NCBI GenBank assembly: GCA_019752815.1
Contig: JAIELQ010000006.1
Location: forward strand, 1,577 to 65,576
DNA from: Patescibacteria group bacterium
Lineage (GTDB): Bacteria; Patescibacteriota; Minisyncoccia; Phycocordibacterales; UBA918
Length of the DNA: 64,000 bases
Reading direction: 5' to 3'
The translations under genes and the position numbers were made by a program. Every line of letters begins with the position of its first letter. Positions within the stretch are counted from its first letter, which is position 1. The notes below the pieces were generated by a model. It had not been told where the DNA came from and searched no databases. It was given only the letters and a program-made list of their open reading frames with translations. Positions 4,875 through 29,357 of the stretch are shown here, in pieces.

Positions 4875-5036
4875 TCAGATTGATGCCCAATCCCGAAAGA
4901 TTGGCTGTTCTACCTGTTTGGTGGCCGAACCCGAACCTTGTTGTTGCTGAGACTTCCCAGTTGGTCGTTTGGTTTCGCTGCTGCCACCCTGCTGTTGTGA
5001 AGAGCTTTCTCCGCCACCTTGTTGTGGTGTTGTCAT
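4875..5036 (-). CDS. small Gln/Gly/Ser-rich hypothetical protein (53 aa), below the ORF-track size cutoff
   Basis: ATG preceded by the strong SD AAGAGGAT 7 nt upstream; translation MTTPQQGGGESSSQQQGGSSETKRPTGKSQQQQGSGSATKQVEQPIFRDWASI. A perfect hairpin GGCTCGCGC-gat-GCGCGAGCC lies just downstream, at 4843-4863. Confidence 0.3.
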   Translation of the reverse strand: MTTPQQGGGESSSQQQGGSSETKRPTGKSQQQQGSGSATKQVEQPIFRDWASI

Positions 5037-25821: not shown

Positions 25822-26211
25822 TTGTATATGAAAGATTTTATCGAGGAATTCAAAGCGTTTGCAATGAAGGGAAATGTTATTGATTTAGCGGTAGCGGTGG
25901 TAATTGGAGCTGCATTTGGAAAAATTGTAGCGTCTTTAGTAGAAAACATTATTATGCCTGCTATTGGGATTATCCTCGGTGGGGTTGATTTTACAACCTG
26001 GTCACTTTCGGTCGGGGACGCAGAGATTACCTACGGAGTATTTATTCAAAGCGTCTTTGACTTTACGATTATTGCCTTTGTGATATTCCTCGTCGTGCGT
26101 GCCCTGTCACGATTTAAAAAGAAAGAATCTATTACACCGACTGTTACTCCGGAACCATCAGACGAGGTTAAGTTACTGATGGAAATCCGCGATAGTTTGC
26201 GGCGGGATTAA
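25822..26211 (+). CDS. mscL: large-conductance mechanosensitive channel MscL
   Basis: FKAFAMKGNVIDLAVAVVIGAAFGKIVASLVENIIMPAIG is the MscL TM1 signature; 129 aa. Confidence 0.85.
   Translation: MYMKDFIEEFKAFAMKGNVIDLAVAVVIGAAFGKIVASLVENIIMPAIGIILGGVDFTTWSLSVGDAEITYGVFIQSVFDFTIIAFVIFLVVRALSRFKKKESITPTVTPEPSDEVKLLMEIRDSLRRD
26173..26200 (+). repeat. 28-bp direct repeat (left copy) bracketing the DGR cassette; lies in the mscL 3' coding end
   Basis: TTACTGATGGAAATCCGCGATAGTTTGC, identical to 28921-28948. Confidence 0.8.
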
Positions 26212-26279
26212 ACATTAAATTGATTAGGAATAGGGTGTATTCACAAGCTATTGAACCATTACGGCACCCTTGCTTTTTC

Positions 26280-26299
26280 TTGAAAAACATGCTATAATA
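26280..26299 (+). promoter_or_regulatory. sigma70-like promoter for the DGR target gene
   Basis: TTGAAA - 17 nt - TATAAT. It is followed by a 5'-UTR 14-bp inverted repeat TTCGCCACAACTTG...CAAGTTGTGGCGAA at 26323-26377. Confidence 0.5.
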
Positions 26300-26422
26300 C
26301 CAGCATTGTTCTTTAGTATTTATTCGCCACAACTTGTTTCAAATAAAATTTTTAATTTGTAGCAAGTTGTGGCGAAGTCCATAAGGATTAGTTGTACAAC
26401 ATACAGAAAGTAGAGGCTTCCG

Positions 26423-27073
26423 ATGAGAACCATCGCTTCCCTCGTAGACACGGCGACCCAAATGGGTCAGACGGCAAAATGGCTACGTTTGCTTGCGGAG
26501 CTGGGTGTAACTCCTCAGCATCTCCAGCGAGCTATCGACAGCAAGTCCGCCCGCACCAATTTGGCGGAATTCTTGCAGGCCGATTGCCCGAAAATCAACT
26601 GGACCGACCCGAATGAGCCGAAAGCCAAACGGGTGAAGAAAGGCGCACAAACTTTCGACGAAGTCGCCTACTTCCAAACCCGTACGGGTCTCTGGGTTGA
26701 TGGTGATCTCGGTCGCTATGTGGGACTGAAAGTCCGTCCCTCTCGCTCGCACCTGGCGTTGAAACGCCGAGTGCTGTCGAAAAACGAGAGCGAAGCGACG
26801 ATGTTCGGTAAGTCTGGTTCCAATCAGTATGCTGAAACCTGCACGAACGCTGTCGATCTTGGTCAGATTGCTTGCAAGATTGACAGGCAATGGAATGGGG
26901 AGGAAGGTGAACTGTTGACTGACGGCAGTGCGAATATTTTCCCGGTCATCGGTCTTGATAGTGCGCTCCGCGTCGTGCGCGTCTATCGGCACGGTGGCGA
27001 GTGGTTCGTGCGCTGCGACCCGTTCAACCCCGACGACGTCTGGAGCACTGGCGACCAGGTGTTCCGCAACTAG
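26423..27073 (+). CDS. DGR target (variable) protein; C-terminal variable repeat
   Basis: 216 aa with markedly higher GC than its surroundings. The last 37 codons form the VR, matching the TR except at TR adenines (VR ALRVVRVYRHGGEWFVRCDPFNPDDVWSTGDQVFRN versus TR-encoded ALRVVNVNRNDGKWNVNCNPFNPDNVWNTGNQVFRN). Confidence 0.75.
   Translation: MRTIASLVDTATQMGQTAKWLRLLAELGVTPQHLQRAIDSKSARTNLAEFLQADCPKINWTDPNEPKAKRVKKGAQTFDEVAYFQTRTGLWVDGDLGRYVGLKVRPSRSHLALKRRVLSKNESEATMFGKSGSNQYAETCTNAVDLGQIACKIDRQWNGEEGELLTDGSANIFPVIGLDSALRVVRVYRHGGEWFVRCDPFNPDDVWSTGDQVFRN
26961..27071 (+). repeat. DGR variable repeat (VR), 111 nt
   Basis: 97 of 111 nt identical to the TR; all 14 mismatches fall at TR adenine positions. 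Confidence 0.85.
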
Positions 27074-27425
27074 TCTTTGGGAACTTAGACCTAAAAAAGT
27101 CCTTAGCACTTCATCCTTAGTACTTTGTCCTTGTGACATTGTGCTAGGGGTGGAGGCTATTTTTGTATATACTTCCATACTATAATATATTGGCGTTTGT
27201 ACTGAGAGTCCGACTACGGTTTTACTCCATAACGTAAGTAACTGTCGACGCCAGAATAGCAGTGATCACGGTTTCTGCTAGTGTGCCCAGCATTACTTTT
27301 TAAAAAATATAATTAGTTGGTGAGATAGACTGGGCAATTATGATTGCGAATAAAATTCAACCCCCAGAGTATGTCAAAATTTCAAAGGGTGGTGGTAAGG
27401 ATGGTCTATCTCTCATATGTACCTG

Positions 27426-27536
27426 GTGCGCTCCGCGTCGTGAACGTCAATCGGAACGATGGCAAGTGGAACGTGAACTGCAACCCGTTCAACCCCGACA
27501 ACGTCTGGAACACTGGCAACCAGGTGTTCCGCAACT
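27426..27536 (+). repeat. DGR template repeat (TR), 111 nt
   Basis: In the VR-equivalent reading frame the TR carries 8 AAC plus AAT, GAT and AAG at the positions that differ in the VR. A possible TATAAT lies upstream at about 27309. Confidence 0.85.
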
Positions 27537-27554
27537 CATATCATTTCTCCCTTA

Positions 27555-27907
27555 CTTTTCGGTGAGGGAGTTTTGTTTCTCGACTTGCCCAAGCCATCCG
27601 CCCAGCATTCGGCCGGTTTCATCAAGCGGCAAGGAAAGCAATTCGTATTTTTGCGTATCAATGGAACGAGTTTCCCAGAGAATGTTAAGGAGAATTTTTA
27701 TTGTATCAAGTTTACGGATAGCAGTCCGCAAATAAATAATTTTGTCAGCTTTTTTACAAAACTGGCACTTGCCACCATCTCGATTATCTCAATAAACAGG
27801 GTATCGATTTTGGGTGCGAGAGTATAGCGATGCGGTTTTTGGATGGTATGAAAAATACTGTACCAAAAAATGTACACCGTACGGATTTTTTGGATTACCG
27901 GCACCAA
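27555..27907 (-). pseudogene. accessory variability determinant (Avd)-like four-helix-bundle gene, apparently frameshifted at a T6/A6 run (about 27750-27755)
   Basis: C-terminal frame translates ...ADKIIYLRTAIRKLDTIKILLNILWETRSIDTQKYELLSLPLDETGRMLGGWLGQVEKQNSLTEK, which resembles the PF05635/Avd C-terminal helices (FLriAkGSlnELetqL...eeigkmLngLiksl). The N-terminal portion is open in a different frame (27698-27907). Total span is about 117 codons. Confidence 0.35.
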
Positions 27908-27951
27908 ACTTGCTTGGAACCTTGCGGGGGGGGGTAGACTTAGGGGGAATC

Positions 27952-28965
27952 ATGAAAAAAGCTAAAAAATTGTTTGCAGGTAGTTTTGATAGTATCACAA
28001 CTATGGAAAATATTTTGATAGCCTGGCGAGCCTTCAAACGCGGTAAAACTAAAAAGTTAGACGTACAGGAATTTGAGCGAAATCTAATAGTGAATCTCCT
28101 TTCGCTCCACACAGATTTACAAAATGGTACTTACCGTCACGGTGGTTACCAGGCATTTAAAATTAATGACCCAAAACCACGTGACATTCATAAGGCGTTG
28201 GTGCGTGACCGAGTAGTACATCATCTATTGTATCTTAGTCTCGCACCATTTTTCTTTCAAATTTTTGTCACCGATTCTTATTCGTGTCAGCTAGGCAAGG
28301 GCACACATAAGGCTCTTAACAGGTTTAGGGAATTTTCAAATATCGTGGCAAAAAATAATACCAAACCATGTTTTGTTTTGAAGTGTGATATTAGAAAGTT
28401 TTTTGCCAGTATAGACCATGAGATATTACAGAGTATTTTGGAAATGAGACTTAATGATAAGCGCTTATTAGCTCTCATACGAGTGGTGGTAGAAAGTTTT
28501 AATAGTGGTGTGGAAGGGAAGGGTTTACCGTTGGGCAACCTAACTTCACAGTTACTGGTTAATATCTACATGCACGAGTTTGATATGTATATAAAACAAA
28601 CGCTTAAAATACCCTATTACATTCGGTACGCTGATGATTTTGTAATTTTTTCGGCAGATAAAGACGAGCTCCTAAAAACACTATCATATATGATAGTGTT
28701 TTTAGGAGATACATTGCGTCTCACAATGCATCCAGATAAAGTAGCTATAAGCATTCTTGCTTCAGGAGTTGATTTTCTAGGTTGGGTTCATTTTCCAAAT
28801 CAGCGGGTGTTGCGGACGGTGACCAAAAAGCGGTTATTTAGAAAATTGGCTAGTAGTAACTTTGATCAAACAGTCGTACAGTCATATTTCGGCTTATTAC
28901 AACATGGCGATACTTACAAATTACTGATGGAAATCCGCGATAGTTTGCAGGATAATCATAATTAG
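27952..28965 (+). CDS. DGR reverse transcriptase (start assigned to the in-frame ATG of MKKAKKLFAG, recalled from a hand-translation of the track ORF 27814-28965; an ATG could not be re-verified in the printed sequence at 27952)
   Basis: RT motifs including RYADDFVIF (YxDD), LKCDIRKFFASIDH (motif A region) and QGxxxSP-like GLPLGNLTSQLLVNIYMHEFD. At about 340 aa the size is typical of DGR RTs, and it has no maturase or endonuclease domains. Confidence 0.8.
   Translation: MKKAKKLFAGSFDSITTMENILIAWRAFKRGKTKKLDVQEFERNLIVNLLSLHTDLQNGTYRHGGYQAFKINDPKPRDIHKALVRDRVVHHLLYLSLAPFFFQIFVTDSYSCQLGKGTHKALNRFREFSNIVAKNNTKPCFVLKCDIRKFFASIDHEILQSILEMRLNDKRLLALIRVVVESFNSGVEGKGLPLGNLTSQLLVNIYMHEFDMYIKQTLKIPYYIRYADDFVIFSADKDELLKTLSYMIVFLGDTLRLTMHPDKVAISILASGVDFLGWVHFPNQRVLRTVTKKRLFRKLASSNFDQTVVQSYFGLLQHGDTYKLLMEIRDSLQDNHN
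28921..28948 (+). repeat. 28-bp direct repeat (right copy) at the RT 3' end
   Basis: TTACTGATGGAAATCCGCGATAGTTTGC. The RT C-terminus LLMEIRDSL duplicates the MscL C-terminal LLMEIRDSL. Confidence 0.8.
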
Positions 28966-28987: not shown

Positions 28988-29012
28988 AAAAACGGCGCCG
29001 TCGGCGCCGTTT
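28988..29012 (+). terminator. intrinsic terminator after the DGR RT
   Basis: AAAACGGCGCC-gtc-GGCGCCGTTTT. Confidence 0.7.
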
Positions 29013-29357
29013 TGGTACCTTGTGTGATCAGCTATCAACGGATGCTCTTCCCAAAACCAAAAAAAGTTTTGGAGTACGAAGACCTGATTAGTTATCCCCA
29101 TTCTTTTGCACGGGTGGTATTTGGCCGGCCTTACTTTAAGCCATATCTGCACGCCATAGCCGTTTTTTACATTTGTACTGAAACCGTTTATTATAGTGCT
29201 ATCACCGCGTCTCCACCGCGATGTGTGTCGGAGGTCAGGACACGCAGCGTTACGTTTTAAAAACGTACCTGAGCCCAGTCTCATAAACTGGGCAGTCTTT
29301 ACCTCACCTTGTAGTCGCGCACATGTATTTATTAAAATAGATTGAACACTTAAGTAT

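Follow-up and report, generated by a model that had tools for sequence, protein, structure and literature searches.

The question raised by the locus studied here is whether a segment of a bacterial genome carries a diversity-generating retroelement (DGR), and, if it does, how the element is built, how it reached its site and whether it still works. The locus lies on a stretch of 64,000 nt from a Patescibacteria group bacterium (positions 1,577 to 65,576 of contig JAIELQ010000006.1, assembly GCA_019752815.1), and the whole of this stretch is referred to as the window. A preliminary description of the window had proposed a complete DGR at 26173-28948 that consists of a target gene with a variable repeat (VR), a template repeat (TR), an avd-like gene and a reverse transcriptase (RT). 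The region is very probably a chromosomal DGR of the Patescibacteria type (architecture B3) that forms an inserted cassette and in which the tip of the target protein is rewritten by the RT. The bias between VR and TR, the DGR-type RT, the Avd homologue and the B3 architecture all agree with the DGR proposed in the preliminary description. Related loci are designated by L numbers and proteins by P numbers.

The VR (26961-27071, plus strand) and the TR (27426-27536, plus strand) were identified by repeat search and alignment. The VR comprises the last 37 codons of the target gene and ends 2 nt before the end of its open reading frame (ORF) at 26423-27073. The two copies form a gap-free direct repeat of 111 nt that is identical at 97 of 111 positions (87%), with a separation of 354 nt. 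All 14 differences are located at adenines of the TR, where the VR has G at eight positions, C at three and T at three. Given the 28 adenines in the 111-nt TR, the hypergeometric probability of this outcome is P = 1.9e-10. In the target frame, each of the 28 TR adenines falls on codon position 1 or 2. Recoding in the VR affects 11 codons, which read AAC, AAT, GAT or AAG in the TR. Both the 111-nt pair with its 14 adenine-specific differences and the 11 codons had been pointed out in the preliminary description, and a recount by TR base and a codon comparison returned the same figures. The VR of the window is a record of at least one homing event that left 14 changed adenines.

The repeat pair also exhibits a 3' boundary that resembles an initiation of mutagenic homing (IMH) site. 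The last mutated adenine lies 18 nt from the repeat end, the TR adenines at 27522, 27533 and 27534 are unchanged in the VR, and the identity between VR and TR ends at 27071/27536. Judged from the sequence, the pair would carry the IMH-like boundary that is characteristic of DGRs. When every TR adenine was allowed to be any base, the TR pattern matched only the VR and TR sites in the 64-kb window (0 matches expected), and a second VR was not found in the window by this degenerate search. Two related loci, L043 (7662-7794) and L056 (5745-5866), carry another VR 3' of the RT. It differs from the same TR at adenines only, and those cassettes therefore have two targets each.

The RT ORF (27952-28965, plus strand) encodes 337 aa and matches RVT_1 (E = 2e-21). 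The motifs LGNLTSQ and YADD were read in its sequence, and LGxxxSQ-type motifs, of which LGNLTSQ is one, are associated with DGR RTs. The best match in the PDB by a wide margin is 8ub7_A, which aligns over the full length of the RT (E = 5.5e-43). This 328-aa reverse transcriptase (entries 8ub7-8ube) is probably the Bordetella bRT, as its length suggests; a literature search gave no confirmation. The group II intron RTs in the PDB matched at 1.5e-16 or weaker and the retron RTs at 1e-9 or weaker, while the match to phrog_1423 reached E = 1.7e-97. The group II RT-maturase model TIGR04416 was matched at model positions 3-280 of 353 with 132 bits against a cut-off of 300, and only in its RT part. 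The retron model NF038233 gave 55.8 bits against a cut-off of 235, and the Drt models were also far below threshold. No maturase part was matched in the RT by the NCBIfam profile scan, and no group II intron or retron RNA family was returned by the Rfam scans. Neither the maturase domain and intron RNA of a group II intron nor the msr/msd RNA of a retron was therefore found in these scans. The RT had been described earlier as a YADD enzyme of about 340 aa that has no maturase domain, and that account holds. A group II intron or retron RT with a maturase, together with no VR polymorphism, had been named there as one outcome that would overturn the DGR reading, and the scores stay far below the cut-offs of those models. 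The RT is best classified, on these comparisons, as a DGR-type RT.

The avd gene (accessory variability determinant; 27907-27552, minus strand) is split into two frames in the window. Its halves match positions 4-58 and 64-105 of the bAvd profile, and they also match DivGenRetAVD of NCBIfam. The repaired product of 118 aa reaches 48.1 bits with Pfam bAvd (cut-off 40) and matches the PHROG entry 'Avd protein of DGR'. The only relative of the repaired Avd in the PDB is Bbp7 (Bordetella Avd), with E = 0.46 over the full length. What had been called an avd-like gene is an Avd homologue by these profiles, with the amendment that it lies on the minus strand and in two frames.

The genome scan with the window RT yielded 61 Patescibacteria loci with RTs that are 49-58% identical. 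In 45 of these 61 clade loci, an adenine-biased VR/TR pair with the two repeats ~465-500 nt apart is followed by a minus-strand avd and then by the RT. Adenine-biased VR/TR pairs were also identified in L084, L085, L007, L010 and L012. The order in the window is target gene with VR (plus), TR (plus), avd (minus) and RT (plus), which is the B3 order. Architecture B3, TR-(avd)-RT, accounts for 90% of the Candidate Phyla Radiation (CPR) DGR set (Wu et al., 2018; PMC5758913). The DGRs of Patescibacteria form a clade of their own, DGR clade 2, and domains, transmembrane or other, can typically not be recognised in their targets (Roux et al., 2021; PMC8144416). The window element is a standard member of this known group because the B3 order and the published descriptions of CPR DGRs agree. 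The enrichment of DGRs in CPR bacteria, mentioned in the preliminary description, agrees with what is already known of the group.

A structured noncoding leader of ~220 nt was identified directly 5' of the TR (27195-27425, plus strand) using RNAalifold and covariation on 46 loci. In the clade, three elements follow one another in the spacer between VR and TR: a hairpin behind the target that resembles a terminator, a TATA(C/A)T box, and ~220 nt in which some blocks are invariant. When the window is compared with L007, conservation is higher in this spacer than in the coding sequence of the RT. The leader is predicted to form three helices on the plus strand, namely H1 (27207-27226), H2 (27238-27302) and H3 (27320-27414), of which H3 contains two inner hairpins (27334-27347 and 27360-27390). 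Compensatory changes were found for 49 of the 61 predicted pairs. Across the alignment, 93.2% of the cells are paired, compared with 78.7% after shuffling and 39-50% when the partners were slid. Double-change cells number 480, compared with 138 after shuffling, and none of 500 shuffles reached the observed value on any measure. A check specific to the window showed that it keeps H1, H3 with both inner hairpins and the apical part of H2, where the apical hairpin at 27262-27283 alone is kept. The invariant single-stranded blocks of the leader are AAAAAA..TAATTAGTTGGTG and AATAAAATTCA. No match to the leader was found in Rfam, including the motifs RT-1 to RT-19, either with the window at E<=1 or with 11 clade loci at gathering scores. 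The window and L007 (AGUUG/CAACU) had at first suggested that the TR pairs through its 3' end (CGACU) with the leader block AGUCG(G). This candidate was rejected, as the block is invariant across the clade while the TR end varies (GCAACU, GCGACU and GCUACU).

A hairpin with a stem of 9-10 bp that is followed by the U-tract UUUUGUUU was identified by terminator scan 10 nt 3' of the TR (27547-27570, plus strand). It is present in essentially all 46 loci, with stem sequences that differ and pairing that is kept, and it has no match to any Rfam family. For 207 of 278 DGRs that contain Avd, a stem-loop of ~9 bp that binds Avd just 3' of the TR has been predicted (Handa et al., preprint 10.1101/2023.10.23.563531). 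By analogy, the hairpin of the window would fit this Avd-binding stem-loop; it also resembles an intrinsic terminator.

The RNA scaffold of the B3 DGRs in Patescibacteria may, by the same analogy, be permuted relative to that of Bordetella. The leader and the post-TR hairpin would then grip the RT and Avd and position the template, all within one short transcript. The leader may take the role of the Sp RNA of Bordetella phage BPP-1 because the antisense avd occupies the space 3' of the TR. We offer this arrangement tentatively and think it possible rather than probable. If true, it would represent a new class of DGR RNA that has no Rfam family, with a priming geometry unlike that of the downstream Sp RNA of BPP-1.

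The proposed mechanism would start with a separate plus-strand transcript that consists of the ~220-nt leader, the 111-nt TR and the 9-bp hairpin with its U-tract. The conserved structure of this RNA is observed and we infer its ends. As homology to the Bordetella system suggests, Avd and the RT would jointly reverse-transcribe the TR and misincorporate nucleotides opposite adenines. The resulting cDNA would replace the last 37 codons of the target gene and recode up to 14 AAY-type codons, an outcome that is visible in the VR.

The cassette is bordered on the left by mscL (25828-26211, plus strand), which encodes an intact protein of 127 aa (Pfam MscL, E = 1.5e-41) that ends in ...KLLMEIRDSLRRD before its stop. 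The last codons of mscL form the left copy of a 31-nt direct repeat (26170-26200, plus strand) that was identified by repeat search (28 nt exact, E = 8e-11). The right copy (28918-28948) belongs to a remnant mscL 3' end (28918-28965, plus strand) whose divergent tail reads KLLMEIRDSLQDNHN before the stop. The two copies differ by one mismatch and bracket a cassette of 2.8 kb. The outer coordinates of the preliminary description, 26173-28948, are the ends of this bracketing repeat, which was not described there. The RT ORF continues in frame into the right copy. When it is aligned with the RT of L007, the RT homology ends at ~28923 (...GDTYKL), and the last ~14 codons and the stop are the duplicated mscL tail, so that the RT ORF has no stop of its own. 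A GC-rich hairpin with a T-run (28988-29013, plus strand) aligns with the mscL terminator of genomes that have an empty site. The left cassette end (26216-26299, plus strand), as read from the sequence, consists of unique junction DNA, a weak hairpin with a T-run and an extended -10 box. The box, TGCTATAAT at 26291-26299, lies upstream of the target gene, whose promoter it would be, and it is also conserved in L017, L084 and L007.

Empty sites were identified in L079-L083, L086 and L087, where YibE_F, MscL, a spacer of ~125 nt, NrdB and NrdA follow one another and no DGR is present. The MscL proteins of the empty-site relatives are 96% and 87% identical to that of the window. Homology between the window and the empty site of L079 passes the mscL stop, breaks at 26215 and resumes fully at 29087. 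When the cassette was deleted between the repeats, the window became collinear with L079, terminator hairpin included. Occupied mscL sites were found in L084, L085 and L017 (more distant lineage). In L084/L085, 49 nt of the mscL end are duplicated with 98% identity, stop codon included, and the RT ORF runs into the duplication. The 3' end of an RNase Y-like gene (rny) is duplicated over 87-108 nt in L007, and that of a ychF-like gene over 79 nt in L075. The duplications of host 3' ends therefore range from 31 to 108 nt at three genes (mscL, rny and ychF). Such repeats occur in three of the 43 surveyed loci with both flanks (the window, L007 and L075), and L084/L085 were found separately. These comparisons indicate that the 2.8-kb unit was inserted after mscL and ahead of the mscL terminator, and close relatives lack it.

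No integrase or recombinase was found among the ORFs of the cassette. Between the window and L007, which occupy different host sites, homology starts at 26243, ~50 nt 5' of the -10 box (26291). This start argues against an RNA intermediate and for transfer at the DNA level, because it lies 5' of the -10 box. Two more specific proposals on the insertion were set aside. Integration of a Campbell-type circle at the 28-nt identity does not fit in its simple version, which would place the donor tail at the left copy and the native one at the right: the empty sites carry RRD before the stop, which is the left tail of the window. For a foreign origin of the rny repeat of L007, argued from an excess of synonymous changes, the counts were too small to decide.

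The cassette could itself be a retroelement whose RT copies a transcript of the full element, with insertion of the copy at host 3' ends and long target duplications. The empty and occupied sites among close relatives and the absence of an integrase from the cassette are in accord with such retromobility. The same is true of the right boundary, which coincides with the last RT codons and leaves the RT without its own stop in the window, L084 and L007, and of the duplicated ends at mscL, rny and ychF. However, the homology between sites reaches beyond the element's own transcript, and the repeats are limited to the three of 43 loci and L084/L085. The tails of the two window copies also differ (RRD and QDNHN, each before the stop), which is unexpected for a simple target duplication. 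The observations cited for retromobility are also accounted for by DNA routes, such as recombination between relatives through homologous flanks or circle integration. We therefore consider retromobility of the cassette very unlikely. A more radical alternative denies the DGR altogether and supposes an ordinary duplication of a gene 3' end beside a group II intron or retron RT, with an adenine bias that arose by chance. The sub-threshold hits of the RT to the group II RT/maturase, Drt and retron models are what it can draw on. Those scores are far under the cut-offs (132 against 300 and 56 against 235) and concern the RT core only, no intron or retron RNA was returned by Rfam and an Avd gene is present. 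Set beside the P value of 1.9e-10 for 14 of 14 and the same bias in more than 45 related loci, this explanation has a practically negligible probability.

A DGR in working order is a different matter, and several observations weigh against it. The avd gene is frameshifted in the window assembly, and the Bordetella system needs Avd to synthesise cDNA. The two avd frames are joined at gtA AAA AAG in the A-run GTAAAAAAG (27757-27749), where L084 reads GTC AAA AAA GCT GAC and the window reads GTA AAA AAG CTG AC, which is one base short. The RT coding sequence contains a perfect palindrome of 40 nt (28669-28708; 100% complementary; residues ...LLKTLSYMIVFLG...) that changes ~13 RT residues relative to L084. 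The same stretch is palindromic at 22/40 positions in L084 and at 12/40 in L007, and the palindrome may be a quasi-palindrome correction or an assembly artefact. Identical VRs are present in L084 and L085, which come from different samples, and the target protein of the window was found on one contig only. The avd orthologues of L007, L084 and L085 are uninterrupted, and avd is single-frame in all 55 clade loci where it was detected (of 61 surveyed; a single tblastn segment each). The lesion is therefore a lineage-specific deletion or an assembly error and not a conserved recoding, since the relatives carry a single-frame avd. The word 'complete' in the preliminary description is an overstatement, because avd is split by a 1-nt deletion that the intact relatives do not have. 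In a crude scan of the window for other split genes, made to gauge the assembly error rate, tightly packed operons gave the same signal as split genes. The element may have died recently, with the VR as a frozen record, through the avd lesion and possibly through the RT altered by the palindrome, which is perfect (40/40) in the window. Decay has parallels in L075, a relative with a truncated RT, and in the orphan target homologue P0014, which is identical on 19 contigs and has no RT nearby. However, the avd lesion is located within or beside an A6 run, where assembly errors typically arise, and gtA AAA AAG is a classic -1 slippery heptamer from which some full-length Avd could be made. The RT ORF is also open, the TR and VR are intact and the leader helices are kept. 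Recent death is, in our estimate, a serious possibility that falls short of an even chance. The heptamer may also be read as a programmed -1 ribosomal frameshift site that sets the level of Avd. The frames join exactly at this heptamer, which is of the dnaX type (X XXY YYZ) and in the proper zero frame, and slipping by -1 would give the same protein as the intact L084 orthologue (...SFVKKADKIIY...). However, no stimulatory downstream structure is evident, and the two-frame avd is not conserved in L007, L084, L085 or any clade locus with avd. Programmed frameshifting was rejected as a conserved avd mechanism on the strength of these single-frame genes, and we consider a programmed site very unlikely.

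The window element, which we continue to regard as a DGR of the Patescibacteria type, has clearly diversified its target in the past. Its present activity, as assembled with a broken avd, is uncertain. L017 and L084 have identical MscL proteins and no differences over ~1.8 kb of host DNA, while their VRs differ at 14 positions, all of them TR adenines. Diversification therefore occurs in the sister lineage and is not constant, because the VRs of L017 and L084 differ and those of L084 and L085 are identical.

The target gene (26423-27073, plus strand) encodes 216 aa. About 70 residues at the N-terminus form a helical module, and the VR belongs to an alpha/beta domain at the C-terminus. No signal peptide or transmembrane segment is visible in the protein, and no match to it was found in Pfam, NCBIfam or PHROG. 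The structure model has a predicted local distance difference test (pLDDT) score of 73 overall and of 80-92 in the C-terminal domain. The Foldseek search of the model against the PDB gave no match, and no solved structure related by sequence to the target family was found. The preliminary description had suggested a C-type lectin fold for the target. This fold is only weakly hinted at.

The word-indexed search identified 17 close homologues of the target, and the scan of metagenomes with the target returned only 4 loci. The exhaustive profile search identified 1,555 cluster representatives at E<=1e-3, of which 322 are at E<=1e-10. Nearly all members of the family have 140-250 aa with the VR-type domain at the C-terminus, and none of 128 sampled members has a Pfam domain. 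The exceptions in length are a few giants that repeat the last ~70 residues of the family domain up to 15 times. P0196 (4,421 aa) and P0140 (926 aa) have 15 and 5 tandem matches, respectively, to these residues, which form the VR-bearing sub-domain, and this module is thus also found as a repeat unit in very large proteins. The members whose context is available are linked to a DGR in L007, L010, L012 and L084/85, and the exception is P0014 (L001-L006). This homologue of 187 aa is 64% identical in the C-terminal domain and lies between a DUF4015 gene and YkuD/peptidase genes; its neighbourhood contains neither an RT nor an avd or a TR. P0014 appears to be a fixed copy whose diversification has ended, because it is identical on 19 contigs from several samples.

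The other 44 surveyed loci of the RT clade have a different family of small targets (...SFDEKDALW...CLLCFCD), and no hits were obtained with the window target against the other clade loci using tblastn. The comparison of the two families using hhalign gave a probability of 12% with a shallow profile of 17 sequences and of 68% (E = 4.9e-5, 184 collinear columns) with a deep profile of 128 sequences. A distant common origin of the two families is possible on these profile alignments. The N-terminal ~70 residues of the window target are 85% identical to those of L017, whereas the C-terminal domains are ~20% identical. The C-terminal domain is of type A in the window and L007 and of type B in L017 and L084, and every combination of N- and C-terminal modules occurs. 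The N- and C-terminal modules can be exchanged, which makes the target a mosaic. The target bodies of L017 and L084 outside the VR (2004-2535 in L084) have ~150 differences that are not adenine-specific, with 45 synonymous and 47 non-synonymous codon changes.

The G+C content of the target gene is 56.2% (65% at third codon positions), compared with 36.9% (34%) for the RT gene and a window mean of 43.8%. The target gene exceeds the RT gene by a median of 14 points across 45 clade loci, with either target family. The earlier figure of about 20 points above the neighbours is correct with respect to the RT gene (19 points); the excess is only 12 points over the window mean and 14.5 points over mscL.

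Two further hairpins accompany the target gene. A 26-nt inverted repeat with 88% complementarity forms a hairpin in the 5' leader of the target gene (26323-26376, plus strand). It is kept in L084 (~1900-1960) and, with a different sequence, in L007 (~4905-4960), and it may be a regulatory element. The other hairpin, which was predicted using RNAfold, lies ~30 nt 3' of the VR and is followed by ATTTTTG (27103-27160, plus strand). Its sequence is 80-90% conserved in L007, and the clade loci have an equivalent GC-rich hairpin with a T-run. This hairpin is probably the terminator of the target gene and possibly the target-recognition hairpin of the DGR.

The DGR itself is one more clean example in a group that is already known as DGR-rich. 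The leader, which is clade-wide, strongly covarying and unannotated in Rfam, provides a concrete RNA for the question of how the reverse-avd (B3) DGRs assemble and prime, which the Bordetella structures leave open for most environmental DGRs. The matched empty and occupied sites and the duplicated host ends show a chromosomal DGR cassette that acts as a discrete insertable unit in reduced genomes. The target family comprises more than 1,500 clusters of small proteins that have no Pfam domain, no visible signal peptide and exchangeable modules. It sharpens the question raised by Roux et al. of whether non-membrane proteins are diversified by the DGRs of CPR bacteria and what such proteins bind. 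No description of the structured leader, the empty and occupied sites or the duplicated host 3' ends was found in the DGR literature searched.

The site of the cassette is similar to that of genomic islands at gene 3' ends with their attL and attR repeats. The cassette lies at the 3' end of a host gene and is bracketed by repeats of that end, of which one makes the gene complete while the other is left as a remnant, and relatives have empty sites. Unlike these islands, the cassette lacks both integrase and recombinase, its copies sit at different host genes (mscL, rny and ychF), and the tails of the window repeats are arranged opposite to what a single crossover at the 28-nt identity would leave. 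The published CPR B3 DGRs of clade 2 (PMC5758913, PMC8144416) share with the window the gene order and strands, a Patescibacteria metagenome-assembled genome as the host, and a small target in which domains, transmembrane segments and signal peptides cannot be recognised and the VR forms the very C-terminal end. The window differs from them in its target family, which is not that of the 44 other loci of the RT clade, and in its frameshifted avd.

The RNA motifs RT-1 to RT-19 are associated with RTs, and RT-10 is located between TR and RT in BPP-1 (Weinberg et al., 2017; PMC5737381). The leader of the window resembles these motifs as a conserved structured RNA beside the DGR template that is presumably part of the RNA substrate of the RT. 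It differs from them in its position 5' and not 3' of the TR and in having no Rfam match. The DGR of BPP-1 (mtd-avd-TR-brt) and the window element both exhibit adenine-specific transfer from TR to VR with the adenines at codon positions 1-2 (AAY), a VR at the 3' end of the target and an unmutated, IMH-like stretch of ~18 nt at the 3' end of the repeat. Both also have RTs that are homologous over the full length (E = 5.5e-43), an Avd and a stem-loop of ~9 bp just after the TR. However, the window element is chromosomal and cellular and is not located in a phage, its target is not Mtd-like, and its avd, which separates TR from RT, is encoded on the opposite strand. BPP-1 has a 140-nt Sp RNA between TR and RT that envelops the RT and supplies the primer, whereas the window has its conserved structured RNA 5' of the TR.

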